Assembly: GCA_963710625.1 (NCBI GenBank) | Contig: CAVQBG010000024.1 | Span: 52,422 to 116,421 of the forward strand | Direction of reading: 5' to 3' | Origin: Ilumatobacteraceae bacterium | GTDB taxonomy: Bacteria > Actinomycetota > Acidimicrobiia > Acidimicrobiales > Ilumatobacteraceae | DNA length: 64,000 nucleotides | Notes under the pieces: model-generated | Told to the model about the DNA's origin: nothing | Seen by the model: the letters and a program-made list of their open reading frames with translations, nothing else | Database searches by the model: none | Shown: piece after piece, positions 1 to 16,489 of the stretch | How the letters are laid out: each line of letters starts with the position of its first letter | Numbering within the stretch: the first letter of the stretch is position 1 | Position numbers and translations under genes: made by a program

Positions 1-3000
1 GTGGTTGCTGCTCGACGTTCGTACCATCGGATCGACGATGCGGTCCGACGGTTGATGGACACCGAAGTCTTCAACGACGACGCGCTGTTCGACCGCATCG
101 AGTACGTCGACTTCTACCGGTACGTCGATGTCGACCTCACCGAGATGCTCCGCTTCCTCGACGAGGAAGCGCCATGGGTGCGACCATCCGACACCGGACG
201 CTCGACGAACTGTCGGATCAATGCGGCCGGCATCCAGACGCACCTGCTCGAGCAGGGGTACCACAACTACGCCGAGCCCTACGCATGGGACGTGCGCCTG
301 GGTCACAAGCAGCGCGAGCAGGCGCTCGCCGAGCTCGACGACCGCGACGACGAGGACGAGGTCGCGGCAATGCTCGCGGAGATCGGGTACACGCCGCGAA
401 CCCGCGAGATCCTCGCCGCCTGGATCGAGGTCGGCGACGATGCGACGGCGCCGAGCCCGGCGGAGTTGCGTGTACACCTCCAGGGACTCCTACCCGCCCA
501 CGCAGTGCCCGCGGCGTTCGTGATCGTCGAGGAACTTCCGTTGACCACGAACGGCAAGCTCGATGTGGCGGCACTTCCTGCGCCGAGGCGCACACATCGG
601 TCGAGCCCGACGCTGGTCGTCGCTCCGACGTCCGAGCTCGAGCGCAGGATCGTCGAGCTCTGGGAACGTCACCTCGGTATCGACACGATCTCCGTCGACG
701 ACGACTTCTTCGCGCTCGGTGGCGACTCGCTCGCCGCGCTCGAGATGACGATGATGTTGAGCGACGCTCTCGGCCGAGACGTCTCCGAGGAGATCGTCTT
801 CTCGAACACCACGCCCAGCGCACTGGCAGCCGCGCTCGATGGACACCACGCGGCCGACCACGGGTTCGATGGTCTCGGCGCCGGCGTTGCGGTCGGGACG
901 GGTCCCGAGCCCAGCACAGGTGGTGACCCACCGCGGCTGTCCGCGGGTGAACGCTCGATGCTGTTCGAGCACCGGATGCGACCCGACGACCCTCGATACA
1001 ACCAGGGTCGCCTGTATGTCCTCGATGGGCTGATCGACCCCGAGCGGTTCCGTGCTGCGCTCGCCGACGTCATCGCCCGTCACGAGCCGCTCCACTGGAC
1101 CTTCGACGAACCCCGGAGACGGCTCACGGTCGACGACGCACTGGCCTTCACCGCCGGGGTGCTCGCCACGCAGGCAGACGTCCGCGAGGCCGCGACCGTG
1201 ATCCATCGCACGCCCTTCGAACTCGCGAGCGGCCCCCTCGTCCGTTGCGGGCTCTTCGAGGTCGACGGGACCACGGCCATCGTGCTCGCGACCCACCACA
1301 TCTCGACCGACGCCGGCTCGTTCGATCGGCTGTGGAAGGAGGCCGTCACCGCCTATCGAGGCGAGGAGCTGCCTCCGCTGCCGAGCTCGTATTCGGACCA
1401 CGCCACCTGGCAGGCGAACCGACTGGCCGCCTCGAACGACGACTACTGGCTGGCATCGATCGGCGCCGTCCCGCGGATGCAATTGCACCGTCCGTTCACG
1501 CCTGCACCGGACGGACTTCGCGACCGCGTGGCCGAGATCACCACGACCGAGTTCCGATCTGCGACCGGCACGTCGCCGTTCGCCACCGTGCTGGCCGCAC
1601 TCGCCACGGTCATGCGTCGCTACTGCGGTGCCGACGAGATCACGCTCGGCGCGCTGGTCTCGACTCGCGACCACGCGAGCGCGGAGAACCTCGTCGGCTA
1701 CTACCTCAACACCCTGCCACTGACCTTCCGTGTCGATCCGGGCGGACATCTCGCAGACCTGCGAACCCAGAGCGCGGAGACCCTGGCATCGGGACTTGCG
1801 CACCGTGTGGTGCCGTTCGCCGACATGGTGACGGGGCGGCGCAGGGCCGAGCTGCCCGAGCCCGCTCCGCAGGTGTTGGTGGCCCTGCAGGAGCTCGACG
1901 AGGTCAGCTGCGGAAGCCTCCACGGCACGCAGGAGATCCTGTTCACCGGAACGGCGGTCGCAGACGCAACCTTCTTCGTGCAGCAGCGGGGCGGAAACGT
2001 CGTGCTCGCCATCGAGCACCGCGGTTCCGAGCTCAGCGCGGAAATCGCCGACCGGCTCCTCGCCGATCTCGACACTGCGCTCACCGCGCTCGTGCGGCGC
2101 CCGGACGCGGTGGTCGGATCGATCACGTTGGACTCGCAGCACGCTGGCCGCCTCGTGGGCTCGACTCCAGCCGCTGCACCGCACGTGATGGCCCAGATCA
2201 CACGGGTCATGGGCGATCAGCCCCACGACGTCGCGATCCGGTGCGGCGACCGCTCTCTGACCTGGCAAGCGCTCGACCATGCATCGACGATGCTCGCTCA
2301 TCGCCTGGTGGCAGTTGGTGTGCGGCCGTCCGATCGCGTCGTCGTCACGCTTCCCCGATCGGTCGAACTCGTGGTCGCCATCGTCGCGGTGCTGCGCGCC
2401 GGCGCTGCCTACGTGCCCCTGGACCCGACGTATCCCACCGCCCGGAACCGCTCGATCGCACTCGCGTCGGACGCTCGGGCCGTGATCGGCGAGTTGGACG
2501 TCGACGGGTTCCAGGGCAACGGCGTCGTCGTCGATCTCGACGACCTGAGCACCGCGCAACCGGACGAGCATGGTGAGCTCCCTCCACCCGACATCGACGG
2601 TCCGGCGTACACGATCTTCACCTCCGGCTCCACCGGCGAACCGCGCGGCGTGACCGTCGGCCACCGGGAGCTCGCGATCAGCACCGCAGCGCGCTCCACG
2701 GTGTACGGCGCGAAACCCGAACGGTTCCTCGTGGTCTCGAGCGCTTCGTTCGACAGCTCGGTCGCCGGTCTGTTCTGGACGCTGACGGCGGGCGGCACGG
2801 TCGTCCTGCCGACCGACGCCGAAGTGCACGACGCCGATGCGCTCATCGACCTGTTCGCGTCAGCCGACATCACCCACACCCTGATGGTGCCGTCGCTCTA
2901 CCGGGGACTGCTCGGCCGGGCAGCGGCCGACGCCGCGTGGCCCGACCAGGTGATCGTGGCAGGAGAGGCGTGCGGACCGGACGTGCTTGCCAGCCACCTC

Positions 3001-4824
3001 GCCACGCGCCCGGGGTCGAAGCTCTCGAACGAGTACGGCCCCACCGAGGCAACGGTCTGGGCGACCGTCAGTCATCTCGACTCGGCGACACCAGGTGTGC
3101 CGATCGGTGATCCGATCCCTGGCGTGTGGACCGCCGTGGTGGACGATCGGGGAGAGCTGTGCCCCGCCGGAGTGATCGGCGAACTGCTGATCGGGGGGGA
3201 GACCGTCACCCGGGGCTACGACGGCGTCGATTCCGACCGATTCGGTGGTGCGAGCCCGCTGGGCGCAGGACGTACGTTCCTCACGGGCGACCGAGCGGCA
3301 GTGGCCGCGGGTCAGCTGTACTTCCACGGTCGGGTCGACGACCAGCTCAACGCCGGCGGGCTCCGGATCGAGCCCACCGAGATCGAGATCGCGCTCAAAG
3401 CGGTGAGCGGCGTCGAGGAGGCGATCGTGGTGGCCCGTGATCTCCGACCGCTCGACGCCCGTCTGGCGTCGACCGAGTCGGCCCGGCTCGCCGACGCGAT
3501 GCGGCGCGCAGCAGGCTCCGACGACCCGCTCGCCTCACTCGACGACGAGTTGGCCGACGATGCCCACCGCTCCCTCGTCGCTCACCTCGAGGGCGACCTC
3601 ACGGCCGTCGACCTCGACGCGCTCGACGCACATCTTTCGGCAACGTTGCCACCGACCGCCACGCCTCGCGTGATCCGGATCCACGAGCGCCTACCGAGGT
3701 CGCCCAACGGAAAACTCGACCGTGCAGCGATCACCATGCTGCCGGTCACCGCATCGAGCCGGCAGTCGCCCGTCGTCCCCGGCTCGATCGGAGAGCTCGA
3801 CGAGATCGTCGGGTTCTTCCGAGACGTCCTCGATCGAAACGATGTCGGACCGGACGACGACTTCTTCGATGCCGGCGGCGAATCGCTGCTCGCGCTCGAG
3901 TTGTTCATGCGGATCGAACAGCGCTTCGGCATCCGCCCGCGCGTCTCGGTGCTGTTCGAAGCTCGCACCCCGCGGGAGCTGACGGCCGCCCTCGGTTTCG
4001 GGGGTCTCGAACAGCGTGATGGCGCGCTGGTCCTCCGGGACGGCGGCGGCGAATCACCGCCGCTGTGGATCTGGCCGGGATCGGATGGGGCGCTCCTCAT
4101 CTTCGAACGACTCGTCGACCGGCTCGACCCTGGGCTCCGGGTGCTGGGCGTCGAGTACCCGGGGACCCGAGGCGAACGGGCGCCGTTCGACACGATCGAG
4201 GACCTCGGTCGGTACTGCCACGAAGCACTGGTCGCGGCCCAGCCGTCGGGCCCGTACCGAATGCTCGGCTACAGCACCGGAGGGCTGGTCGCCGTCGATG
4301 TTGCCCGCCGACTGCTCGAGACCGGCGAGGACGTCGACTACCTCGGCGTCATCGAAGCCGGGGTGGCAGGAGTGGCCGACCCTCGCGGCCGGGCGGCCAA
4401 GTTCGTGGACGCATGGCGGACCCGCGGTCCGCGCTTCGCCGCGGCACGACTGCGCAGCTCCACCCAGGTCCTGACCGACGAGGTGACGAAGACGATCCGG
4501 CGCTCGCTCGAAGACCTCGCGGTCGACCGGTTCGGCATCCGGCCATCCGACCGGAGGTTGTTCCTCGGTATGGAACACCACTTTCGCGCTGCGAGTCTGA
4601 GCTACCGGCCACCGACGATCGATGCCGACATCGACCTCTATCTCGGCGACGACGCCTCCGCACACTGGATCACCGCGATGACTCATGCCTGGGAATCCGT
4701 CGCAGGAGGTCGGCTCCGTGTCGTCCAGGTCGATGGTTCTCACATCCGCAACACGATGCTCCTGCCACCGCACGTCGACTCCCTCGCTGCGTCGGTCGCC
4801 GCCGACCTCGTGGACGATCGATGA
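1..4824 (+). CDS. Non-ribosomal peptide synthetase, 5'-truncated at window edge. Visible order: A-domain C-terminal part with a foreign insert, then T-C-A-T-TE
   Basis: Motifs in the ORF: LPLTTNGKLD (A10), FFALGGDSLAALE (T), HHISTDAGSF (C, HHxxxDG), YTIFTSGSTGEPRGV / NEYGPTEAT / GELLIGG / RVDDQLNAGGLRIEPTEIE / PRSPNGKLDR (A), FFDAGGESLLALE (T), GYSTGG (TE, GxSxG). Confidence 0.9.
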   Translation: MVAARRSYHRIDDAVRRLMDTEVFNDDALFDRIEYVDFYRYVDVDLTEMLRFLDEEAPWVRPSDTGRSTNCRINAAGIQTHLLEQGYHNYAEPYAWDVRLGHKQREQALAELDDRDDEDEVAAMLAEIGYTPRTREILAAWIEVGDDATAPSPAELRVHLQGLLPAHAVPAAFVIVEELPLTTNGKLDVAALPAPRRTHRSSPTLVVAPTSELERRIVELWERHLGIDTISVDDDFFALGGDSLAALEMTMMLSDALGRDVSEEIVFSNTTPSALAAALDGHHAADHGFDGLGAGVAVGTGPEPSTGGDPPRLSAGERSMLFEHRMRPDDPRYNQGRLYVLDGLIDPERFRAALADVIARHEPLHWTFDEPRRRLTVDDALAFTAGVLATQADVREAATVIHRTPFELASGPLVRCGLFEVDGTTAIVLATHHISTDAGSFDRLWKEAVTAYRGEELPPLPSSYSDHATWQANRLAASNDDYWLASIGAVPRMQLHRPFTPAPDGLRDRVAEITTTEFRSATGTSPFATVLAALATVMRRYCGADEITLGALVSTRDHASAENLVGYYLNTLPLTFRVDPGGHLADLRTQSAETLASGLAHRVVPFADMVTGRRRAELPEPAPQVLVALQELDEVSCGSLHGTQEILFTGTAVADATFFVQQRGGNVVLAIEHRGSELSAEIADRLLADLDTALTALVRRPDAVVGSITLDSQHAGRLVGSTPAAAPHVMAQITRVMGDQPHDVAIRCGDRSLTWQALDHASTMLAHRLVAVGVRPSDRVVVTLPRSVELVVAIVAVLRAGAAYVPLDPTYPTARNRSIALASDARAVIGELDVDGFQGNGVVVDLDDLSTAQPDEHGELPPPDIDGPAYTIFTSGSTGEPRGVTVGHRELAISTAARSTVYGAKPERFLVVSSASFDSSVAGLFWTLTAGGTVVLPTDAEVHDADALIDLFASADITHTLMVPSLYRGLLGRAAADAAWPDQVIVAGEACGPDVLASHLATRPGSKLSNEYGPTEATVWATVSHLDSATPGVPIGDPIPGVWTAVVDDRGELCPAGVIGELLIGGETVTRGYDGVDSDRFGGASPLGAGRTFLTGDRAAVAAGQLYFHGRVDDQLNAGGLRIEPTEIEIALKAVSGVEEAIVVARDLRPLDARLASTESARLADAMRRAAGSDDPLASLDDELADDAHRSLVAHLEGDLTAVDLDALDAHLSATLPPTATPRVIRIHERLPRSPNGKLDRAAITMLPVTASSRQSPVVPGSIGELDEIVGFFRDVLDRNDVGPDDDFFDAGGESLLALELFMRIEQRFGIRPRVSVLFEARTPRELTAALGFGGLEQRDGALVLRDGGGESPPLWIWPGSDGALLIFERLVDRLDPGLRVLGVEYPGTRGERAPFDTIEDLGRYCHEALVAAQPSGPYRMLGYSTGGLVAVDVARRLLETGEDVDYLGVIEAGVAGVADPRGRAAKFVDAWRTRGPRFAAARLRSSTQVLTDEVTKTIRRSLEDLAVDRFGIRPSDRRLFLGMEHHFRAASLSYRPPTIDADIDLYLGDDASAHWITAMTHAWESVAGGRLRVVQVDGSHIRNTMLLPPHVDSLAASVAADLVDDR

Positions 4825-5750
4825 CGCAGGGCGCCGACATCAGTGTGGTGATCCCGACGTTCAATCGGTCCCGGTCGTTGGCGCGACTGCTCGACGCGCT
4901 GGCAGACGAGGCCACCGCTGGGTGCACGGCCGAAGTGATCGTGGTCGACGACGGTTCGACCGACGACACCGAACAGGTCGTGCGACAGTGCGCGCTCGCG
5001 GTGACCTATCTCCGCCAGGCCGGGGCAGGCCCGGCGGCGGCCCGCAACACGGGCTGGCGGGCGAGCTCCGCGCCCGTCGTCGCCTTCATCGACGACGACT
5101 GCGTCCCCCGACCGGGGTGGCTCACCGACCATCTCGCAGCGTTCGAAGATCCGTGTGTCGGAGGTGTCGGTGGAACCATCGAGCCGCTCGTCGACGGATT
5201 CATCGCCGACTTCATCACCGCCGATGGCCTGGTCGATCACGGCCGTCCGCCGGGACGGGGCGCCGACGCCGATCCGACGTACCTGGTCACCGCGAATGCT
5301 GCGTTCCGCCGGGCGGCGCTCGAGGCGGCAGATGGCTTCGAGGAGGACTACCGGCTGGACCGCCCGGATCGGACCGGCCGGATCGTGGCCGGGGAGGACG
5401 TCGACCTGTGCTGGCGGATCGTCGAGGCGGGCTGGGCACTGAAACGATCGCCGGGCGCGATCGTCGCACACGACCATCGGGTCGCCCTCGACGCCCTGAT
5501 GCGGACGTACTTCCGTCACGGACGGGCGCGTCGTGAACTCGGCCGGCGACATCATGGTCGTGGAGCGGCCGATGGGATGCGACGGGCGACGTCGACGCGT
5601 CACTGGATCGACCGAGTCCGGCGATATCGAAACCGCGGTGAGCGATCCTGGGGCCGCGTCGCCGGGTTCGTTCTCCTGCGGCTGGGCGCGCTGATCGCCT
5701 ACGGGGGCGGTGTGCTCCGGTCGTTCAGCGACGATCGGTCAGCCCGCTGA
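4821..5750 (+). CDS. Family 2 glycosyltransferase
   Basis: ISVVIPTFNRS...VIVVDDGSTDDT...AFIDDDCVP. The ATG overlaps the NRPS stop (ATGA), so the two are translationally coupled. Confidence 0.85.
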   Translation: MTQGADISVVIPTFNRSRSLARLLDALADEATAGCTAEVIVVDDGSTDDTEQVVRQCALAVTYLRQAGAGPAAARNTGWRASSAPVVAFIDDDCVPRPGWLTDHLAAFEDPCVGGVGGTIEPLVDGFIADFITADGLVDHGRPPGRGADADPTYLVTANAAFRRAALEAADGFEEDYRLDRPDRTGRIVAGEDVDLCWRIVEAGWALKRSPGAIVAHDHRVALDALMRTYFRHGRARRELGRRHHGRGAADGMRRATSTRHWIDRVRRYRNRGERSWGRVAGFVLLRLGALIAYGGGVLRSFSDDRSAR

Positions 5751-6651
5751 GGCCGACGAGGAATCCGGCGCCCCACGGCAGGTGCATCGCCGGCAGCACC
5801 GGTGCCACCAACAGGCCGCTCGGACCGGCGGACGCCGCCTGACGCGCGGTCTCCGCCGCCAGAATGGCGAGGTAGGTTGACAACACGTGACGCCGCCACG
5901 GCGAGCACAACCCGAGCACGAGCAGCGGACCCGCGAGTTGGCGTGGAGCGAGCGACGAGGGGTGGCGCCGCACGGTCGCCGCTCGCGAGCTCCCGTACCT
6001 CCAGAACTGGGTGGCCACGGCTCGCAGCGTCCGGCGCGGCACATACGTGCTCCTGATCGAAGGGTCGAACCACACCCCTCCGCGGCGCGCCATGCGAACG
6101 GCGAACTCCGCGTCTTCGTTCACCCCCACGTCGGTTGCGTAGCCGCCGACGGCGACGGCGTCGGCGGTGCGATAGGCCCCCAGGTAGACGGTGTCGACCC
6201 AGCCTGGCGCTCCTCCGCTGTGGAAACGCGCGGGTCCGGCGCCCAGCGGCGAGGCCATCGCGAGGGCGATCGCGGCCGGCAGACCGCTCGCCGCCACCGG
6301 TGACATCGCGCCACCCACCATCGCAGCACCGGTACGGTCGAGTGCCTCCACACACCGCTCGACGTAGTCGACCGCGATCGTGCAATGCCCGTCGACCCGA
6401 ACGATCACCTCGCCGACGGCCTCTGCGATCCCCACGTTGAGCCCGGACGCCTGCACCCGGTTCGGGTTGTCGAGCACCGTCGCACCACCGACCGCCGCAA
6501 GCTCTCGTGTGCGGTCATCGGACCGACCGTCGACGACCAGCACCTCGATCACATTCGGATACGTCTGCTCTCGGACCGCCGACAGGGTCTGCTCGATGTG
6601 TGCTTCTTCCCGGTAGGTGGGGATGACGACGGTGACCGTCGGCCCACTCAC
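5725..6651 (-). CDS. Family 2 glycosyltransferase
   Basis: VTVVIPTYREEAHIEQTL...VLVVDGRSDDRT. The GTG start overlaps the upstream stop (GTGA). Confidence 0.85.
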   Translation of the reverse strand: MSGPTVTVVIPTYREEAHIEQTLSAVREQTYPNVIEVLVVDGRSDDRTRELAAVGGATVLDNPNRVQASGLNVGIAEAVGEVIVRVDGHCTIAVDYVERCVEALDRTGAAMVGGAMSPVAASGLPAAIALAMASPLGAGPARFHSGGAPGWVDTVYLGAYRTADAVAVGGYATDVGVNEDAEFAVRMARRGGVWFDPSIRSTYVPRRTLRAVATQFWRYGSSRAATVRRHPSSLAPRQLAGPLLVLGLCSPWRRHVLSTYLAILAAETARQAASAGPSGLLVAPVLPAMHLPWGAGFLVGLSGLTDRR

Positions 6652-7967
6652 CGGCCCCCACTCCCGACGATCGTGCGAATCGTCCGGCCGGCGATCACGA
6701 GGTCGAACCGGAGGCTCTGGTGCCCCAGATAGTAGAAGTCGTACTGCAGCTTCTCCCGTGCGTCGGTCTCGTCACCTGCATAGCCGTACTTGACCTGTGC
6801 CCAACCGGTGAGACCGGGCCGAACCGAGTGACGCAGCTCGTAGAACGGGAGCTTCGTCGTCAACTCCGCGACATAGCGAGGTTGTTCCGGCCGCGGGCCC
6901 ACGATCGAGAGATCACCCTTGAGGACGTTGATCATCTGCGGCAGTTCATCGAGATGGGATCGGCGAAGCAGGTTCCCGAACGGAGTGATGCGGGGATCGC
7001 CGCGAGTGGTCCAATCCGTGGTCGCGCCACCATCGTCGTCCATCGTGCGGAACTTGTAGATCGTGAACTCGCGGTGGTCGCGCCCGACGCGGGCCTGGCG
7101 ATAGAAGACGGGCCCACGATTCGCGACCAGATCACCCAGCGCAACGAACGGCGTCACGACGGCGAGCACCACGACGCCGACCAGACCCGCAGCGACGTCG
7201 AACACCCGCTTGAACCGCCCGTATCTGGCCACGTGGAGCTCTCCGATGTCGAAGAACAGTGACGTCTGCGCCAGGTCCTCGACGGGGACCTTCCCCAACC
7301 ACTCACCGGAGAACGACGGCCGGGTGCGTATGCGAACACCGGTCAGGTGCAGGATGGCTGCCTGATCGATGATTCGTTCGTCGAGCAGCGCATCTGGTTC
7401 GAAGACGACGACGGTCGCCCCGCAACGGTCGGCCGCATCGACCAGCGGCGTGCCCTCGACGGCCGCAACGAGGTCCTCGAGCGCCACCGAACCGACGATC
7501 GATGCCGGTCGCTCGGGTTGGTCGTCGAGCTCGGTTCGCAACGCGGACGCGAGTGACGAGCTGCCGACCACGAGCACCCGATCCCGCGCCTCGAGCCGTG
7601 TCCGGCCGGTCTGCGACAACTTCGAACAGACCATGCACCACGGCACGACGAGCACCGCCGACCCGAAGACGACATATCGCGGAAGCAGCGCCGCGCCGAG
7701 CACCAACTGCGCCAGCGACACACCGACGGCACCGACGGCCGACGCCGAGATCGACGGCACGACGGCCGACTTCACGTCGCGGTAGGAGTCGGGGAGGCCG
7801 AACCCGTACAGCACGATGCTCAGCAGGACCGAGTAACCGATCGCCCATCCGAACCGGGACGTCTCGAAGAACTCGTAGTCCCCCACGTACGTGCCGTGGA
7901 CGACCGACAGCCCGAAGACGATCCCGACGACGCCGGCGTACAGCAGAGCGGTGGCCAGGCGACGCAC
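6648..7967 (-). CDS. Polyprenyl-phosphate glycosylphosphotransferase (WbaP / exopolysaccharide sugar transferase family)
   Basis: N-terminal TM segments. C-terminal FKRVFD...PVFYRQARVGRDHREFTIYKFRTM...DELPQMINVLKGDLSIVGPRP. Confidence 0.85.
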   Translation of the reverse strand: MRRLATALLYAGVVGIVFGLSVVHGTYVGDYEFFETSRFGWAIGYSVLLSIVLYGFGLPDSYRDVKSAVVPSISASAVGAVGVSLAQLVLGAALLPRYVVFGSAVLVVPWCMVCSKLSQTGRTRLEARDRVLVVGSSSLASALRTELDDQPERPASIVGSVALEDLVAAVEGTPLVDAADRCGATVVVFEPDALLDERIIDQAAILHLTGVRIRTRPSFSGEWLGKVPVEDLAQTSLFFDIGELHVARYGRFKRVFDVAAGLVGVVVLAVVTPFVALGDLVANRGPVFYRQARVGRDHREFTIYKFRTMDDDGGATTDWTTRGDPRITPFGNLLRRSHLDELPQMINVLKGDLSIVGPRPEQPRYVAELTTKLPFYELRHSVRPGLTGWAQVKYGYAGDETDAREKLQYDFYYLGHQSLRFDLVIAGRTIRTIVGSGGR

Positions 7968-7970
7968 AGG

Positions 7971-9599
7971 TCAAGCGTAGGTGTGCTCGGTCGGCTGCCG
8001 CCGGTCGAGCTCCGCATCTCGTCGGATGGCCCAGCCGAGCATCCCGGCGAGCACCCCGAATGCGGCGGAGCCGAGCAACCACACCACGTTCGGCGTGACG
8101 GGGATGTCCCACCACCACTCGCGACCGCTGTCGAGATCGATCGAGAGGTTTGCCACGCCGCTGATGTAACGCCGCATGTACGAGTGCAGCGCCACGCTGT
8201 GGGCCACGGTCATCAGACTGAGCACGGTCGTCAGTTGCACGACCGTGAGCCCCGAGACACTCGTTGTGCGCCGCCAGTACAGCGCCGTGAACCCCAGCAC
8301 CGGGACGAGCGGCAGCACGTAGCGCGGCGCGATCTCGAAGCCGACGGGCCACCCGCCGCGCCACAGCAGGAAGTACGGGACGGCCAGCAGCCCACCGAGT
8401 ATGGCGAGCAGCGACAGGGCCTTGCGCCAATCCATGCGCCCGATGCCCAAGAACGCCAGCGCGAAGAACGAGGCGACCGTCGGCATCCACACCGTTCGCG
8501 GCATCGGCGTGTCGAGCCAGCCGATCGGTGCGACACCCAGATTGCCGGTGATGAAGTACGGGATCTCCCGCAGGTTGTTCCACAGCAGATTGCCCCGCGG
8601 CTGAGAACTCACTGCGTCCTGGATGACGAGCGCTTCCACGTCGACCACTCGCCTCGTCAGGACGACGATCGAGACGAGCAGCGCCACGCCGGCGACGGAC
8701 GCCACCGCGAGAAGCCTCGGCATCGAGTCGCGTTTCGGCCGCCAGAGCAAGACGCATGCCGCGATGACTGCGATGAACGCATAGAGGCCGCCGTCGGCGC
8801 GGCTCCCCGCGGCCGCCGTGAGACCCAGGACCAACAACGCACCGGCAACGACCGTCTCGCGCCGTGCGCGGGCGTGCAGTAGCGCGACCACCGCACACCA
8901 GGACGCGCCGATCGCAGCAACGACCACACCGCTCGGATTCGTCGAGGGCCACAGGGAAATCGCCCGAGGGACCGCAGTGACCAGCAACATGATCAGGTAG
9001 CCCGCGCGATGGCGGTGAGGAAGAACGAACCAGCCAGCAGCCAGCAGCCCGACGCACAGCGTCCACGACGTGAAACGGGCGAGCAGCGCCGAGTTGACGG
9101 GCTCATCGCCCACCGTCAAGCCCATCACCGCGTGGAAGAGCCCCGGGTAGATCCCGTCATTGGCGATCGTCCGCACCCTGGTCCCGGGTTCGATCGCCCC
9201 CTGACAGGCGGCCGACCGATACGCATCGAAGGCGTAGCAGTGCGCACCGGGCCCGATCTCGGCAGGCACCTCGACGAAGTCCTTGCCCGCGGCGTAGGCA
9301 TCGCCCAGGTTCGTGCAAGCGTCGTCCGGCGCGGTCGGACTGCACCAGATGCTCGCGAGGTGGAAGCCGTCGTCCGGGGCGGCGCCGATCGGCGCCGCCA
9401 ACGTCCACATCGCCCCCAACACGACCAAGGCGAGAACGACCGCAACGACCGTCCAGGTCCGACGGCCCCCAGCCGGTTCGGTGTGCACCGGCGCAGTGTC
9501 CGGCTCGTCGACCGCCGCCTCGACGTCCGACCGGTCCACCTCGGTCTCCTCGAGGCCGGCGCCGACGGGATCGGGCAATGGATCAGCGCCCGAGACCAT
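7971..9599 (-). CDS. Polytopic membrane protein (DUF2142-like, possible GT-C type glycosyltransferase)
   Basis: Multiple hydrophobic helices and GFHLASIWCS near the N-terminus. First gene of the minus-strand glycan operon. Family name is from memory. Confidence 0.6.
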   Translation of the reverse strand: MVSGADPLPDPVGAGLEETEVDRSDVEAAVDEPDTAPVHTEPAGGRRTWTVVAVVLALVVLGAMWTLAAPIGAAPDDGFHLASIWCSPTAPDDACTNLGDAYAAGKDFVEVPAEIGPGAHCYAFDAYRSAACQGAIEPGTRVRTIANDGIYPGLFHAVMGLTVGDEPVNSALLARFTSWTLCVGLLAAGWFVLPHRHRAGYLIMLLVTAVPRAISLWPSTNPSGVVVAAIGASWCAVVALLHARARRETVVAGALLVLGLTAAAGSRADGGLYAFIAVIAACVLLWRPKRDSMPRLLAVASVAGVALLVSIVVLTRRVVDVEALVIQDAVSSQPRGNLLWNNLREIPYFITGNLGVAPIGWLDTPMPRTVWMPTVASFFALAFLGIGRMDWRKALSLLAILGGLLAVPYFLLWRGGWPVGFEIAPRYVLPLVPVLGFTALYWRRTTSVSGLTVVQLTTVLSLMTVAHSVALHSYMRRYISGVANLSIDLDSGREWWWDIPVTPNVVWLLGSAAFGVLAGMLGWAIRRDAELDRRQPTEHTYA

Positions 9600-9658
9600 C
9601 GGACGAGTGTAGGTGCGCGACTACCCGCACCAGAGAGCGGTGCTGGCAGAATGTGCGG

Positions 9659-10639
9659 GTGAGCACGTTGGAGCGGTCGTCGATCCTGATCACGGGCGGT
9701 ACCGGCTCGTTCGGCAAGGCGTTCACCCGGTGGGCGCTCGACCACCTCGATCCGGCCCGGCTCGTCGTGTTCTCCCGCGACGAGCTCAAGCAGTACGAGA
9801 TGCGCCAACAGCTCGGAGACGACCCCCGCGTTCGCTGGTTCATCGGTGACGTGCGTGATCGCGGGCGGCTCACTCGGGCGCTCGACGGGGTGGAGTTCGT
9901 GATCCATGCGGCGGCGCTCAAGCAGGTCGACACGGCCGAATACAACCCGTTCGAGTGCATCGCCACCAACGTCCTCGGCGCGGAGAACGTGATCAACGCA
10001 TCGATCGACGCCGGAGTTCGCCAGGTGATCGCGTTGTCCACCGACAAGGCATCGAGCCCGATCAACCTCTACGGCGCGTCCAAGCTGTGCTCCGACAAGC
10101 TGTTCGTCGCCGGGAACCACTACGCCAGTCACTCGGCGACTCGGTTCGCAGTCGTGCGCTACGGCAACGTGATGGGGAGCCGCGGGTCGGTGATCCCGTA
10201 CTTCCGGCAATTGGCGCCGACCGGTCGTCTCCCGATCACCGACACGCGGATGACGCGCTTCTGGATCACGTTGGACCAGGCGGTCCGCTTCGTGGCCGAC
10301 AGCTTCGAGCGGATGTCCGGTGGCGAGCTGTTCGTCCCGCGGATTCCGTCGACGACCGTGCTCGACCTGGCGCGAGCGATCGCACCCGATGCGGTGCACG
10401 ACGTCGTCGGCATCCGGCCGGGCGAGAAACTGCACGAGGAGATGGTCTCGGTCGACGACGCACGTCGGACGTTCGAGTACGACGACTACTACGCCATCGC
10501 GCCGTTGCTGTCGGGCTGGACCGATCAGGATCCCTTCGCGAACGGCAAACCCGTCCCGGACGAGTTCTCCTACCGATCGGACACCAACGAGCAGTGGCTC
10601 GGGGTCGACGAACTCAGGGCGCTGCTCGCGACCATCTGA
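9659..10639 (+). CDS. pseB: UDP-N-acetylglucosamine 4,6-dehydratase (inverting), PseB
   Basis: ILITGGTGSFGKAF...FSRDELKQYEM...STDKASSPINLYGASK. GTG start chosen at 9659; the ORF is open from 9578. Confidence 0.85.
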   Translation: MSTLERSSILITGGTGSFGKAFTRWALDHLDPARLVVFSRDELKQYEMRQQLGDDPRVRWFIGDVRDRGRLTRALDGVEFVIHAAALKQVDTAEYNPFECIATNVLGAENVINASIDAGVRQVIALSTDKASSPINLYGASKLCSDKLFVAGNHYASHSATRFAVVRYGNVMGSRGSVIPYFRQLAPTGRLPITDTRMTRFWITLDQAVRFVADSFERMSGGELFVPRIPSTTVLDLARAIAPDAVHDVVGIRPGEKLHEEMVSVDDARRTFEYDDYYAIAPLLSGWTDQDPFANGKPVPDEFSYRSDTNEQWLGVDELRALLATI

Positions 10640-11727
10640 TGATCCCCTACGGTCGACAGTCGATCGACGACGAGGACGTTGCCGCCGTCGTCGAGGTGCT
10701 CCGTGGCGACTGGCTCACGCAGGGTCCGACGGTCGAGCGATTCGAACGTGCGCTCGCCGATCGAGTGGCCGCCCGCCACGCCGTGGCTTTCTCCTCCGGA
10801 ACCGCAGCGCTCCACGGTGCTGCTGCTGCGGCAGGATTCGGCGACGGCGACGTGGTGGTGACCTCACCGCTCACGTTCATGGCGACAGCGAACTGCGTCC
10901 GCTACGTGGGCGCCCAGCCGGGACTGGTCGACATCGACCCGGCGACGTGGAACCTCGACCTCTCCCAGGTGCCCAACGACATCGCAGGCGTGATCCCCGT
11001 CCACTACGGCGGGCTGCCGGTGGCGCTGGACCGTTGGCACCCGTCCAGCCGGACCGTCGTGATCGAGGACGCTGCGCACGCGCTGGGAGCCTCGACACCG
11101 TCCGGGCCGGTGGGCAGTTGTGGCGAGAGCGCCATGACCTGCTTCTCGCTGCACCCCGTCAAGCCGATCACCACCGGCGAGGGCGGGATCGTCACCACGA
11201 ACGACGACGAACTCGCCGACCGACTTCGCCGCTTCCGCACCCATGGGATCGTCCGCCGCCCCGACCTCGGGGGTTGGGCGTACGAGATCTCGGACATCGG
11301 ATACAACTACCGCCTCACCGACATCCAGGCAGCACTCGGTCTGTCGCAACTGCGCCGGCTCGACCGGTTCATCGACCGGCGAAACGAGATCGCCGAGCAC
11401 TACCGGGAGTTGCTGGCCGACCTCCCGATCGGGCTGCCGCCCGCCGCGCCGACCGGCTACCGGCACGGCTATCACCTCTTCGCGGTTCGCGTCCCGGATC
11501 GCCGGGAGGTCTACGACCGCCTGCGCGACGCAGGAATCGCAACCCAGGTCCACTACGTGCCGATCCATCACCATCCGGTGAGCGCGGACATCGAGCTGCC
11601 ACCCGGTGGCCTGCCGGCGTGCGACGCGTTGTACGAGGGGCTGCTCAGCCTGCCGATGTTCCCGACGCTCACCGATGACGATGTCCGCCACGTCGCCGAA
11701 CAGGTGCGAAGGAGCCTCGATGCCTGA
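10639..11727 (+). CDS. pseC: UDP-4-amino-4,6-dideoxy-N-acetyl-beta-L-altrosamine transaminase, PseC (DegT family)
   Basis: MIPYGRQSIDDEDVAAVVEVLRGDWLTQGPTVERFE. The ATG overlaps the pseB stop. Confidence 0.85.
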   Translation: MIPYGRQSIDDEDVAAVVEVLRGDWLTQGPTVERFERALADRVAARHAVAFSSGTAALHGAAAAAGFGDGDVVVTSPLTFMATANCVRYVGAQPGLVDIDPATWNLDLSQVPNDIAGVIPVHYGGLPVALDRWHPSSRTVVIEDAAHALGASTPSGPVGSCGESAMTCFSLHPVKPITTGEGGIVTTNDDELADRLRRFRTHGIVRRPDLGGWAYEISDIGYNYRLTDIQAALGLSQLRRLDRFIDRRNEIAEHYRELLADLPIGLPPAAPTGYRHGYHLFAVRVPDRREVYDRLRDAGIATQVHYVPIHHHPVSADIELPPGGLPACDALYEGLLSLPMFPTLTDDDVRHVAEQVRRSLDA

Positions 11728-13144
11728 GGGTCGTCATGTGGTCGTGTGCGCCGACGCCTCCCCGGATCTCGGCCTCGGTCACGTCATGCGCTCGCTCGTG
11801 CTCGCTCACGAGCTCACGGCGGCCGGGTGTGCCACCACGATCTGTGGAGTCGGGGTTCCCGCCGACCTGCTGGGGTCGACCGACCTGGTCACCCGGCGAG
11901 ACGCCGACGATGTCGACACGGTGATCGGACTGCGCCCCGACTTCGTCGTCGTGGACGGTGACCACTTCACCGCCGACTTCTTCGCCGCTCTCGATGCTCA
12001 CGGGATCGGGTACGCCGTCATCGACGACAACGGTGACACCGCTGCCGGCCGGCCGGTCGTGGTCGTCAACCAGAATCCCCATGCGAAACCGGCGATGTAC
12101 GACCACCTCGAGGGGAATCCTCTCCTGCTGTTGGGCGTGCGATTCGCGCTGCTCAGGCCCGAGATCGACGAGATCGCTCGGCAGGCACCGGCGCGTCGAG
12201 CGGGAACCGTCTTCGTGGCGTTCGGCGGCAGCGATCCCCGCCGACTGACCGAGCCCGTCGCAGTCCGACTGGCATCGGAGGGGCTCACCGTCCGGGTCGC
12301 CGTCGGCCCCGTGCACCCGGAGCGAGCAGAACTCGTCTCCAGGTTCGACGGAGAAGCAGGTGTCACGGTCACCGAACCCGAGGACTACGCCACCGAGCTC
12401 GCCACCGCGAGCGTGGCGGTGCTCGCTGCCGGCTCGAGCCTGCTGGAAGCGGCAGCCCTCGACACGCCGGCCGTCGCCGTGATCGTGTCCGAGAACCAAC
12501 GACGACTGGCGGCCGCTTCTCTCGACCAGGGCGTGGTGTTCAGGGTGTTCGACGCCGACGAGGAGTTCCTCCGCGAACTGGGCACCGACGTGGCCACCGC
12601 GCTCGGCTCGACGCTCCGCCCCGATCGGCTGCGCGTGCCCGGTTCCGGCGCCCGACTCGTTGCTGCATCAGTCACAGATCGGATGTCGTCGCCCGTACGG
12701 CTCCGGCCGGCGTCGATCGACGATGCTGCCTTCGTGTTCTCACTTCGGACCGATGCCGACGTCCAGCAACAGTCGTTCGGAGCTGCACCGACCTGGGAGC
12801 AACACCTCGAATGGTTCCGGGCGACCATCGACGATCCTCGTCGTCGACTGATGATCGTCGAGCGCGCATCGGACCCGATCGGACAGATCCGGCTCGACGA
12901 CGTCGGCGACCACGAGGTCGTGTCACTGGCAATCGCTGAACCGGCGCGGGGACGAGGCCTCGGGCGACGCGCACTCGGCGCAGCGACTGCGCTCGCCGTC
13001 GGTGACCTCGTCGCCCACATCCGGCCGGACAATGCACGATCGCTCGCGGCGTTCTCGAGTGCCGGGTTCGTCGTGGAGTCGGAGAACGCTGACGAGGTCG
13101 TGATGCGCCGATCCTGCGGCCCGAGAACGGAGACGGCGCCGTGA
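11720..13144 (+). CDS. pseGH: Fused PseG (UDP-sugar hydrolase) and PseH (GNAT N-acetyltransferase)
   Basis: N-terminus VVVCADASPDLGLGHVMRSLVLAHEL (PseG-type). C-terminus is GNAT: RLRPASIDDAAFVFSLR...ARGRGLGRRAL. Confidence 0.8.
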   Translation: MPEGRHVVVCADASPDLGLGHVMRSLVLAHELTAAGCATTICGVGVPADLLGSTDLVTRRDADDVDTVIGLRPDFVVVDGDHFTADFFAALDAHGIGYAVIDDNGDTAAGRPVVVVNQNPHAKPAMYDHLEGNPLLLLGVRFALLRPEIDEIARQAPARRAGTVFVAFGGSDPRRLTEPVAVRLASEGLTVRVAVGPVHPERAELVSRFDGEAGVTVTEPEDYATELATASVAVLAAGSSLLEAAALDTPAVAVIVSENQRRLAAASLDQGVVFRVFDADEEFLRELGTDVATALGSTLRPDRLRVPGSGARLVAASVTDRMSSPVRLRPASIDDAAFVFSLRTDADVQQQSFGAAPTWEQHLEWFRATIDDPRRRLMIVERASDPIGQIRLDDVGDHEVVSLAIAEPARGRGLGRRALGAATALAVGDLVAHIRPDNARSLAAFSSAGFVVESENADEVVMRRSCGPRTETAP

Positions 13145-14199
13145 CCTCGATGCACATCGCCGGCCGCGCGATCGGCGTCGACGAACCTCCCTACGTGATC
13201 GCCGAGATCTCGGCGAATCACCGCGGCTCACTCACAGCAGCCATCGAGTTGGTGCACGCCGCTGCAGAAGCGGGCGCTGACGCCGTCAAGCTCCAGCACT
13301 ACACAGCCGACACGATCACCGTTCGCTCAGATCATCCCGATTTCCTCGTCACCGGTGGGACGTTGTGGGATGGCCGTCAACTCGCCGACCTCTACACCGA
13401 GGCGATGACGCCGTGGGAGTGGACCGACGATCTTGCAGTCGCTGCGACGAACGCCGGCATCACCTGGTTCTCGACACCGTTCGACCGCACTGCCGCCGAC
13501 TTCCTCGCGCGTCACGACGTCCCTGCGTTCAAGATCGCCTCGTTCGAGATCGTCGACCTGCCCTTGATCCGGTACGTGGCGGGACTCGGCAAGCCGGTGA
13601 TCATCTCGACCGGCATGGCGTCGTTGGAGGAGATCGACGCAGCGGTCGGCGCAGCGGCGAACACCGAGACGGCGGTCCTGCGCTGCAACTCGGGCTATCC
13701 CGCGCTCCCGGCCGAGATGGACCTGCGAGCGATCCCGGTGATGCGCGATCGCTGGAAGCTCCCGATCGGCCTGTCCGATCACACACTCGGCTCCACGTCG
13801 GCGATCGCGGCGGTCACGCTCGGCGCGTGCATCGTCGAGAAACATCTCACGCTCCGACGATCCGACGGAGGTCCGGATGCGGAGTTCTCGGCGGAACCGC
13901 AGGAGTTCGCTGCGCTCGTGTCGTCGCTGCGCGAGGCCCACGCCGCCCTCGGAGAGGCTCGATTCGGTCCATCCGAGCGCGAGGTCGCGAACCTGGCGTT
14001 CCGCCGGTCGCTGCGGGCCGCCCGGCCGATCGCGGCCGGGACGGCCCTGACGCCCGATGACGTCCGGTCGATGCGTCCCGCCGGCGGACTCGCCCCGGAC
14101 GATCTCGATCTCGTGATCGGTTCGGTGGCATCGACCGACCTGGTCGTCGGCGACCCGATCACGTGGGACGATCTCGTGCCGTTCGAGGGGGAACGATGA
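13141..14199 (+). CDS. pseI: Pseudaminic acid synthase (NeuB family), PseI
   Basis: PPYVIAEISANHRGSL...KLQHYTADT...FKIASFEIVDLPLI, plus a C-terminal SAF-like region. Confidence 0.85.
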   Translation: MTSMHIAGRAIGVDEPPYVIAEISANHRGSLTAAIELVHAAAEAGADAVKLQHYTADTITVRSDHPDFLVTGGTLWDGRQLADLYTEAMTPWEWTDDLAVAATNAGITWFSTPFDRTAADFLARHDVPAFKIASFEIVDLPLIRYVAGLGKPVIISTGMASLEEIDAAVGAAANTETAVLRCNSGYPALPAEMDLRAIPVMRDRWKLPIGLSDHTLGSTSAIAAVTLGACIVEKHLTLRRSDGGPDAEFSAEPQEFAALVSSLREAHAALGEARFGPSEREVANLAFRRSLRAARPIAAGTALTPDDVRSMRPAGGLAPDDLDLVIGSVASTDLVVGDPITWDDLVPFEGER

Positions 14200-15503
14200 C
14201 ATCGCTGTGTGTGATCCCGGCCCGGGGCGGGAGCCAGCGGATTCCGCGCAAGAACATCCGGCCGTTCGCCGGTGTCCCGATCCTCGCCAGAACCATCGAC
14301 ATCGTGATCGAGTCCGGTGTCGCCGACCGCATCGTCGTGTCGACCGATGACGAGGAGATCGCCGAGATCGCACGAGCGGCCGGCGCCGAGGTGCCGTTCC
14401 TCCGCGCCGCCGACCTCGCCGGCGACGATGTCCCGACGATCCCGGTGGTCGCCGACACGCTCGCCAGGCTGTTCGACGACGAGCGCGGTGGCGTCGACAC
14501 GACATGGGTCGTGTACCCGACCGCCGTGCTGATCGAACCCGGGGACCTGGTTCGCGCCCACGACGACTTCGTCGCATCGGGCGCGGCGGTGGCCATGTCG
14601 GTCGTCGAGTCGCCCGGACCGATCGAGCGCGCCTGGCGACGGACCGTTCGCGGTCGTGGGCGGATGTGGTCGCCCGATCACGTCGAGACACGGACCCAGG
14701 ATCTCGAGCCGGCCTTCTTCGACGCTGGGCAGTTCTATGTCGCCGGCACCGACTTCTGGCTCAGCGGAGCGACGCTCGCCGACGCCGATCCACTGCTGGT
14801 GTCGTTGCCCCGCGAGCGCGCGATCGACATCGACACGATCGACGACTGGCGTTTCGCGGAGTCGGTCTTCGCCGGCAGGGCCGCTCGCAGCGAAGCCGAC
14901 CGCCTCGAAGCACTCTGGTCGGGCGAGTTCGGCGACCGCTACGTCGACCGCAATCGTGACGCCGGCGATCCGCGCGAGCCGTTCTGGACCCACATCGTCG
15001 AACTGACCGATCCGAGTTCGGTCCTCGAAGTCGGCTGCAGCACCGGCAACAACCTGCGATGGCTCGACGACGGGTCTCGACACGTCGTCGGCGTCGATGT
15101 CAACCGCGGCGCGCTCGACGAACTCGCCGAGCGACTTCCGCGGGTCGAATCCCACCTCGCGTCTGCTCGGAGACTCCCGTTCGACGACCAACGATTCGAT
15201 CTGGTGTTCACGGCCGGCGTGCTCATCCATCAGCCCGACGAGTCGCTCGACGAGGTGCTGACAGAGATGCGACGGTGTTCGCGGCGGTGGATCATGATGG
15301 CCGAGTACTTCGCGCCGTCTCGCGAGGAGATCCACTATCGGGGGATCGAAGGAGCGCTGTTCCGGCGCGATTACGGCGCCCTGATCGCCGAACTCCACGG
15401 CGACCTCACCCTGCGCCAGTCGGGCTTCCTGGGCCGCGACGAAGGGTGGGACGACGTCACCTGGTGGTTGTTCGAACGGCAGCACCCGCAACGCGACGAG
15501 TGA
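14196..15503 (+). CDS. pseF: Pseudaminic acid cytidylyltransferase PseF fused to a Pse-associated SAM methyltransferase domain
   Basis: N-terminus CVIPARGGSQRIPRKNIRPFAGVPIL. C-terminus LWSGEFGDRYVDRN...VLEVGCSTGNNLRWL...FDLVFTAGVLIHQ. ATGA overlap with pseI. Confidence 0.8.
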   Translation: MTSLCVIPARGGSQRIPRKNIRPFAGVPILARTIDIVIESGVADRIVVSTDDEEIAEIARAAGAEVPFLRAADLAGDDVPTIPVVADTLARLFDDERGGVDTTWVVYPTAVLIEPGDLVRAHDDFVASGAAVAMSVVESPGPIERAWRRTVRGRGRMWSPDHVETRTQDLEPAFFDAGQFYVAGTDFWLSGATLADADPLLVSLPRERAIDIDTIDDWRFAESVFAGRAARSEADRLEALWSGEFGDRYVDRNRDAGDPREPFWTHIVELTDPSSVLEVGCSTGNNLRWLDDGSRHVVGVDVNRGALDELAERLPRVESHLASARRLPFDDQRFDLVFTAGVLIHQPDESLDEVLTEMRRCSRRWIMMAEYFAPSREEIHYRGIEGALFRRDYGALIAELHGDLTLRQSGFLGRDEGWDDVTWWLFERQHPQRDE

Positions 15504-15529
15504 CCTCGATGCGAGTGGCATCGGAGACG

Positions 15530-16489
15530 TCAACCGTCAGCCGCCTCCAACACGTCACGAAGCTGTTGCGAGTCGAGCAGATCGACGTAGTCGACACTCT
15601 GGAGGGCCCCGCCGAGATAGAACGCAACCGACGACGAGTGGTGATAGACGGTGAGGTGATCACTGATCTCCGCCAGGACGCCGACGAAGACCTCGGCCGG
15701 TATCCACGAGCCCGGCAGGCTCACCACGCCGTCGCGATCGACCGGGGCACCGTCGTGTGGGTGGGGCTTGTGGAACACGACGTCGGCGCCGGCCTGTGCC
15801 TCGTCGAGCACGTGGTCGGGAGTGCGTCCCCACATCGCCAGGACCAGCGCGACGCGGCCCAGTCGTTGCGTCGGCTCACCGAGCTGCCTCATGACGAGCT
15901 GGTGCCAGGTGTCGGCTCCGAAACGCAGTTCGTCGACGAGTCCGGGGAAACCGACCGCCTTGTGCGCAGTACGGGGGTTGAGCCGACGGTAGACGTCCGG
16001 CCGGCTGACCATGACGAGGTCGGTCTTGCGGCCCTCGCCGAACTCCCATCCGCAGCCTGTCGTGACGACCAGAACCTTCCACTTCAGCTTCCGCATCCCG
16101 CGTAGCGACATCTCGGGATTGCTCCGATAGGTGCCGATCCCCTCCTCGAAGAGCACCAGCCGTTCCGTCCGAAGGGGGGCGAAGAGCCGGTATCGGCCAA
16201 CGCGATCGTCCTCGATGAACAGCGTGTCGTACCGGTTGCGAGTGAACTCCTCGATCGCCGCGTCGTCGTCGAGGTTCCACGACACCGACGAGAAGAGCCG
16301 ACCAGAGCCGCTGGAGGACATGAACTGGGCGAACTCGTCGACACCGTCGATCGAGGACGTCAGGACGTGCAACCGGCTCTCGACGATTCCGAAGTGTCGG
16401 ACGATCGACGCACAGTTCAACACCTGGAGCGGCTTGCTGCACACGAACACCGACCGTCCGAAGTCGATGCCGGCAGCCCGATCAGCCAT
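15530..16489 (-). CDS. Hypothetical protein, GT52 (sialyltransferase-like)-related; candidate pseudaminyltransferase
   Basis: N-terminal VFVCSKPLQVLNCASIV resembles the GT52 'C-TPLQ-L' start motif (from memory). Sits within the pse locus. Start chosen at the internal ATG (MADRAAG). Confidence 0.5.
   Translation of the reverse strand: MADRAAGIDFGRSVFVCSKPLQVLNCASIVRHFGIVESRLHVLTSSIDGVDEFAQFMSSSGSGRLFSSVSWNLDDDAAIEEFTRNRYDTLFIEDDRVGRYRLFAPLRTERLVLFEEGIGTYRSNPEMSLRGMRKLKWKVLVVTTGCGWEFGEGRKTDLVMVSRPDVYRRLNPRTAHKAVGFPGLVDELRFGADTWHQLVMRQLGEPTQRLGRVALVLAMWGRTPDHVLDEAQAGADVVFHKPHPHDGAPVDRDGVVSLPGSWIPAEVFVGVLAEISDHLTVYHHSSSVAFYLGGALQSVDYVDLLDSQQLRDVLEAADG

Follow-up and report, generated by a model that had tools for sequence, protein, structure and literature searches.

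The 64,000-nucleotide stretch of DNA from an Ilumatobacteraceae bacterium analyzed here (contig CAVQBG010000024.1 of assembly GCA_963710625.1, positions 52,422 to 116,421; hereafter the window) opens inside a nonribosomal peptide synthetase (NRPS) gene. Sequence comparison indicates that the first ~130 residues encoded there are very probably the C-terminal third of a known tailoring domain, the aminomutase/amide dehydratase (AMDH) domain, as an in-line member of the CysH/AlbIV family. The AMDH, of 38 kDa and with the ATP motif SGGKD, interrupts the Asn-specific adenylation (A) domains of CysH and AlbIV (Gross et al. 2021, PMC7966384). In vitro, CysH converts L-Asn bound to the thiolation (T) domain into β-cyano-L-alanine and CysH lacking the AMDH gives no dehydration, while in vivo no isoasparagine or cyanoalanine linkers are formed once the AMDH is deleted, and the BLAST homologs of the AMDH all sit in Asn-specific A domains (PMC7966384). 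For Alb04, a review (PMC8949500) describes a 342-aa insertion resembling the α-adenine nucleotide hydrolases, with proposed ATP activation of the side-chain amide oxygen of tethered Asn followed by elimination to β-cyano-L-alanine. A domains interrupted by an AMDH were described in 2014-2015 and characterized biochemically in 2021, and the fusion is therefore not new, contrary to what was implied by the original prediction, which was made from the letters of the window alone.

In a BLASTP comparison, window residues 1 to 130 are 50% identical to residues 207 to 338 of the CysH AMDH (E 8e-46; CysH sequence from the source data of PMC7966384). The complete domain from L003, a related locus in an Ilumatobacteraceae metagenome-assembled genome (MAG), is 48% identical to the CysH AMDH over 325 aa (E 7e-116). 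AMDH alignments contain ~45 columns that are invariant across phyla, and the window copy keeps all the family-invariant columns of its part (YH, D, the FYRY region, W, RP-DTGRSTNC-N, H, HNY, P and WDVR-G). The residues on which the original prediction relied are present in frame 1, namely PSDTGRSTNC (aa 62-71), WDVRLGH (aa 96-102) and EIGY (aa 127-130). The STNC motif (nt 202-213, + strand) contains Cys71, which is invariant in three alignments; in the AMDH family, this residue completes a CxxC...C pattern as its third Cys. The region from SGGxDS through STNC is found in a single open reading frame (ORF) in 76 of 78 related loci, 75 of which also carry a zinc ribbon.

From nt 1, frame 1 has no stop codon before nt 4822-4824 and, with its 5′ end cut by the window edge, encodes 1607 residues; the G+C content of the window is 69%. 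With high confidence, nt 1-4824 can be read as the 3′-terminal 60% of a single bimodular NRPS gene whose predicted order is C1-A1(AMDH)-T1-C2-A2-T2-TE, where C and TE denote condensation and thioesterase domains. All its features are on the + strand. The AMDH segment (nt 1-390, assigned by BLASTP against the CysH AMDH) passes without an intervening stop into the rest of the A1 C-terminal subdomain (nt 397-576; PF13193 AMP-binding_C, aa 133-186), which contains A9 as LPAHAVP (aa 164-170, nt 490-510) and A10 as NGKLD (aa 184-188, nt 550-564, including the code lysine). T1 follows at nt 643-837 (PF00550 PP-binding, aa 215-279), with its serine motif GGDSL at aa 240-244 (nt 718-732), and the Asn-derived residue should be carried here. 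The predicted run of the chain into A9/A10 and then a T domain can thus be read directly in the window. The second module comprises C2 (nt 952-2130; PF00668, aa 318-710, E 2.1e-37; HHISTD at nt 1294-1311), A2 (nt 2212-3720; PF00501, aa 738-1073; TIGR01733, aa 754-1143) and T2 (approximate limits nt 3790-3990, from a second Pfam PP-binding stretch; GGESL at nt 3874-3888). The TE and the stop codon of the gene occupy nt 4060-4824 (PF00975, aa 1354-1583, E 9.3e-22), with the TE motif GYSTGG at nt 4267-4284. Between A8 (GRVDDQL) and A10 (NGKLD) of A2 (nt 3328-3720, aa 1110-1240), there are ~35-40 extra residues rich in Ala, Asp and Leu, a stretch too short for a catalytic insert.

The PP-loop SGGKDS, the zinc ribbon and the VCxGC motif of the domain all lie upstream of the window and were read in relatives. 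L003 and the window are collinear, with a DNA identity of 79-87% and with window nt 1 matching L003 nt 9989; across the shared AMDH part, their proteins are 95% identical. The L003 ORF is uninterrupted for ~1040 residues further upstream, through a C domain, an A core with A8, the CxxC...CxxC zinc ribbon CVRCGLADNVPNVSFDADGVCDRC and SGGKDS. From the synteny, SGGKDS is predicted for the genome of the window as well. In L003, the TIGR01733 match ends at A8 and is followed by a WbuX-like stretch (positions 2-322 of the 344 in the TIGR03573 profile) and then by AMP-binding_C. The N-terminal junction, in which GRxDEQVKxGGIRL...AAVR is followed by CxRCGL..., is readable in the related protein P0114 and in locus L001, and homolog P0101 starts with the CxxC...CxxC ribbon. 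In an AlphaFold model of P0114 (mean pLDDT 86.5), the insert is flanked on both sides by retained strands of the A C-terminal subdomain. Across the window, L003 and L001, a foreign domain thus lies between A8 and A9 of an A domain that is otherwise intact, and the proposed interruption by a PP-loop, amidotransferase-like domain is borne out by the full order in L003. A homolog search with window aa 1-200 gave 113 matches, those extending upstream carrying SGGKDS and a weak QueC/PP-loop Pfam match. The long-read contigs of L001 and L002 are full of frameshifts, such that the junction is visible and the architecture is not clean. In L003, the NRPS ORF (6860-15724) reads through into the downstream GT2 glycosyltransferase with no TE in frame, probably through a frameshift error of that long-read assembly; a TE homolog 80% identical to the window TE is present in the locus.

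The original prediction had recognized in the segment the C-terminal end of a WbuX/PseA-type N-acetyl-sugar amidotransferase (NASAT). When window aa 1-200 were scanned against Pfam and NCBIfam, the A-domain C-terminus was the only significant match, and the first ~130 residues had no significant family. The sole NCBIfam match of the fragment was TIGR03573 (WbuX), which was not significant (E 0.11, 11.9 bits; aa 31-120 aligned to profile positions 227-321 of 344), and phmmer of window aa 1-140 against PDB sequences gave chance matches only (for example, a cytidylate kinase at E 0.5). For the full domain, TIGR03573 is the best NCBIfam family, longer homologs matching it over almost its full length (E 1e-15 to 1.7e-35); scores are E 7.5e-29 and 101 bits for L003, E 1.7e-35 and 123 bits for P0101, and E 3.1e-44 and 152 bits for the CysH AMDH. 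The proposed profile test hence fails on residues 1 to 130 alone and is significant on the whole domain in relatives. None of these sequences, the window fragment and all the longer homologs included, reaches the curated cut-off of 203.2 bits. NASATs are marked by a PP-loop SGGXDS and a tetracysteine motif, CXXC-Xn-[GN]XCXXC (PMC10607449), and L003 has both.

A predicted structure of the interrupted A domain points the same way. The top Foldseek match of the P0114 model is 5WMM, through the A-domain flanks, and the next is the Legionella NASAT 8WEX, matched by the insert. Among PP-loop folds, 8WEX scores best (E 4.7e-12; TM score 0.53-0.55 normalized to the target; 15-16% identity), with TtuA, YcfA and LarE ranking below it. 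As judged from profiles and a model, the likeness between AMDH and NASATs is true remote homology and not family membership. The recognition of a WbuX/PseA-type sequence was thus right as to the nearest stand-alone family and went too far as to identity, the scores lying under the cut-off. We consider it highly likely that the AMDH is a PP-loop (adenine-nucleotide α-hydrolase) domain that shares a lineage with the N-acetyl-sugar amidotransferases. No earlier account of this link was found in the literature. The 2021 AMDH study reported no usable structural template (PMC7966384), and 8WEX, which was published afterward, supplies the template that it lacked. Two other candidates, a nitrile synthetase of the QueC type and a domain of the asparagine-synthetase type, were set aside, each match being weak and confined to the PP-loop region.

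The specificity codes are consistent with an Asn-activating module. The A1 code is DLTx[VI]GEV[GC] in 68 of 68 readable related loci (DLTKVGEVC in L003), an Asn-type code of which the window itself holds the tenth residue only, the Lys of NGKLD, with the other nine upstream. A survey of A-domain codes gives DLTKIGEVGK both for Asn and for the albicidin module that supplies cyanoalanine, where AlbIV converts Asn in situ (PMC12283262). The A2 code of the window is DSALIAEVW, and DSALIAEVWK is listed as a His code in the same source; His-type codes of the form DS..[IVM]AEVW occur at A2 in ~58 of 60 loci. Since A1 codes are of the Asn type and A2 codes of the His type, the core of the product would be a conserved (modified Asn)-His dipeptide. 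We propose that A1 activates L-Asn and loads it on T1, where the tethered residue would have its side-chain carboxamide oxygen activated by the AMDH at the expense of ATP. The activated Asn could then undergo elimination to β-cyano-L-alanyl-S-T1 (amide dehydratase) or isomerization to isoasparaginyl-S-T1 (aminomutase). C1 would couple an upstream, carrier-bound starter to the modified Asn residue, C2 would add His activated by A2, and the TE would release the product. Asn dehydration in vitro and isoasparagine formation (via domain deletion) have been shown for CysH only (PMC7966384). By analogy and from sequence likeness, we infer that the present copy shares the CysH activity; its outcome may be cyanoalanine or isoasparagine, and its ATP chemistry may be O-adenylation or O-phosphorylation.

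Several points weigh against this assignment. The window holds only the last third of the domain, and the PP-loop, the zinc ribbon, the A1 core and C1 are attributed to its gene from L003. CysH and AlbIV are stand-alone A-T modules that work with a shuttle protein, whereas the window domain sits in an in-line elongation module. At ~50% identity, the outcome (nitrile, isoasparagine or other) could differ from that of CysH and AlbIV, from which all activity data come, and the ATP-dependent mechanism is a proposal even for CysH.

The domain is widespread. A phmmer search with window aa 1-130 against 1.84 billion representative sequences found 624 proteins at E<=1e-3, 324 of them at E<=1e-30, a likeness well beyond what chance would give. 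Among the best 150 of the 624, nearly all are NRPSs of 1350-3200 residues with the segment at ~aa 1050-1250, and the AMDH C-terminal region is therefore specific to an NRPS-embedded family. A scan of species-representative genomes identified at least 593 loci. The carriers are mostly MAGs of Acidimicrobiales/Ilumatobacteraceae and also include Roseovarius (among them the cultured Roseovarius sp. ZX-A-9), the cultured Roseobacter sp. GAI101, Rhodobacteraceae, Bacteroidota, cyanobacteria and others.

Conserved partner genes were read in relatives, all upstream of the NRPS and hence beyond this window (for example, L072 1-6750, L038 1200-6600 and L067 1-6540). In ~40-44 of 60 loci, they encode a stand-alone A domain, a small peptidyl carrier protein (PCP), one or two acyl-CoA-dehydrogenase-like proteins and a HupE_UreJ_2 membrane protein. 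This set hints at a modified starter unit and perhaps at a metal-related role. The in-line C-A(AMDH)-T-C-A(His)-T-TE synthetase thus defines a large, phylogenetically broad cluster family with conserved partners. The stand-alone A domains have unusual codes, such as DIFWIGCAC and DQFYLGVQC. A pyrrole-2-carboxyl starter, which the stand-alone A domain, PCP and acyl-CoA dehydrogenase could suggest, is at most a candidate, these codes not resembling those for Pro. The membrane protein has ~390 aa with its HupE_UreJ_2 domain at the C-terminus, and an S-adenosylmethionine (SAM) methyltransferase is also present in some of the related loci.

A complete pseudaminic-acid (pse) operon lies 5 kb from the NRPS gene, as the original prediction stated, at nt 9578-15503 on the + strand. 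It comprises PseB (nt 9578-10639, 496 bits), PseC (nt ~10640-11727), a PseG-PseH fusion (nt 11606-13144), PseI (nt 13141-14199) and PseF fused to a Pse-associated methyltransferase (nt 14163-15503). No PseA (TIGR03573) gene and no second AMDH or NASAT-like sequence were found anywhere in the window. Between the NRPS gene and the operon lie a GT2 glycosyltransferase on the + strand (nt ~4840-5750) and, on the − strand, a second GT2 (nt 5725-6651), a Bac_transf priming sugar transferase (nt 6648-7967) and a DUF2142/Wzy-like membrane protein (nt 7971-9599). Downstream of the operon, nt 16558-18249 (+ strand) encode an ABC exporter whose permease and ATPase are fused (MsbA/HepA-like, E 1e-71), possibly a flippase for a glycan or lipid-linked oligosaccharide. 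In a comparison of 59 loci of at least 15 kb, glycan and pse genes near the NRPS were common to the window and L003 only and absent from the other 58. Their position beside the NRPS is an accident of gene order in one lineage, with no evidence that the two are functionally connected.

The cysteine pattern of the domain deserves comment. The AMDH family conserves SGGKDS, VCxGC ~70 residues on and the distant Cys of STNC (Cys71 in the window; C148, C151 and C274 in the L003 domain). The [4Fe-4S]-dependent LarE has an SGGXDS motif with a CXXC-C layout (PMC9283937), and the best PDB sequence match of the family profile is mmLarE-[4Fe-4S] (8CNZ, E 4e-9), with VCnGC aligned to NRCYNC. CysH was dark brown on purification, and the search for an Fe-S motif in that study was limited to the radical-SAM-type CxxCxxxC (PMC7966384). 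Given the LarE-like layout, the match to 8CNZ and the brown CysH, a second metal site in the AMDH is plausible from its sequence, and the color could have a testable cause in the conserved CxxC...C pattern, although the zinc-ribbon cysteines could equally explain it. A more elaborate picture, possible and in our view doubtful, would have the AMDH as a NASAT-derived PP-loop domain with a second metal site, possibly a [4Fe-4S] cluster on VCxGC and the STNC Cys. On that picture, the NRPS would belong to a very widespread cluster (at least 593 species-level genomes) making a small (β-cyanoalanine or isoasparagine)-His peptide, possibly metal-related because a conserved HupE/UreJ-type membrane protein adjoins the synthetase.

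These observations bear on what else the insert might be. An Fe-S-dependent PP-loop enzyme of the TtuA or [4Fe-4S]-LarE type, inserting sulfur to give a thioamide or thioacid or using a cluster in some other way, would account for the SGGKDS, VCxGC and invariant STNC Cys, for the aligned CxxC of 8CNZ and for the dark brown CysH. However, the products of CysH and AlbIV contain no sulfur, no sulfur-donor genes were noticed among the conserved neighbors, and the color could also come from iron on the zinc-ribbon cysteines; we regard such an enzyme as very unlikely. A true N-acetyl-sugar-amidotransferase-type enzyme, making an amidine from the Asn carboxamide or an N-acyl group and ammonia and possibly tied to the neighboring pseudaminic-acid genes, could draw on the TIGR03573 match over nearly the whole length, the PP-loop and CxxC-Xn-G-x-CxxC motifs, the fold match to 8WEX and the complete pse operon. 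What speaks against it is that the profile scores of 101-152 bits lie below the 203-bit cut-off, and that the ~15-16% identity to 8WEX compares with 48-50% to an AMDH whose shown products are a nitrile and isoasparagine, not an amidine. Moreover, the 130-aa query recovers only 624 proteins from 1.84 billion, the best 150 of them being almost all of NRPS length or fragments and not stand-alone proteins of glycan loci. Upstream NRPS partners recur in more than 40 loci, compared with a pse and glycosyltransferase neighborhood in 1 of 59, and no glutaminase partner was seen. Such an amidotransferase is very improbable. That the insert has decayed into a mere spacer within the A domain, without catalytic activity, has nothing specific in its favor and is scarcely credible in light of the invariant columns, all kept in the window's part, and of the intact run from PP-loop through STNC in nearly every locus, mostly with the zinc ribbon.

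We therefore prefer an AMDH acting on T-bound L-Asn (PMC7966384), and the suggestion that the fusion links peptide assembly to nonulosonic-acid chemistry is not supported, given this domain identity and the single shared pse neighborhood. The odd segment is better seen as a known tailoring domain for nitrile or isoasparagine residues than as a bridge between peptide and sialic-acid-like sugar chemistry.

Among known systems, CysH of the cystobactamid pathway in Cystobacter velatus is like the window family in the length of its domain (~330-340 aa), in its SGGKDS, zinc ribbon, VCxGC, STNC and WDVR motifs, and in its location, between A8 and A9 of a host A domain specific for Asn, with a T domain directly downstream. 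However, the A(AMDH)-T module of CysH stands alone and has as its partners the hydroxylase CysJ, the methyltransferase CysQ and the shuttle CysB, whereas the AMDH of the window NRPS belongs to an in-line C-A-T module with a His module after it. AlbIV/Alb04 of the albicidin pathway in Xanthomonas albilineans (Cociancich et al. 2015, as cited in PMC8949500 and PMC7966384), which we compare through its published description, likewise has an SGGKD insert in an Asn-activating A domain, and its A code, DLTKIGEVGK, is identical to those of several relatives of the window NRPS. It differs, according to the same sources, in that the module stands alone and makes up for the inactive in-line A domain of an assembly line for para-aminobenzoic acid oligomers.

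The stand-alone NASATs (WbuX, WbpG and PseA; Legionella LpNASAT, 8WEX, PMC10607449) share with the AMDH the SGGKDS motif, an N-terminal tetracysteine zinc motif and the length and order of the domain, and in both groups an amide carbonyl is the actual or proposed target. NASATs convert N-acetyl sugars to acetamidino derivatives, whereas the AMDH is embedded in an NRPS, acts on Asn and is only ~15% identical. LarE (Thermotoga, Methanococcus) and TtuA resemble the AMDH in their SGGXDS and CXXC...C motifs, with significant profile or fold matches to 8CNZ, 5B4F and 5ZTB, but these enzymes insert sulfur, whereas the AMDH has no known sulfur chemistry and a cluster that is only putative. No report was found in literature searches that paired interrupted adenylation domains or NRPSs with PP-loop, QueC or N-acetyl sugar amidotransferase, and the PP-loop type of insert is absent from two surveys of interrupted A domains (PMC8341866 and PMC11355689). 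The methyltransferase-interrupted A domains, exemplified by TioS A4-M-A4 (PDB ID: 5WMM; PMC8341866), share with the window family both the a8-a9 insertion site and the logic of an embedded tailoring domain that acts on an aminoacyl-S-T intermediate; the insert is a SAM methyltransferase in the TioS type and a PP-loop ATPase in the type represented by the window.

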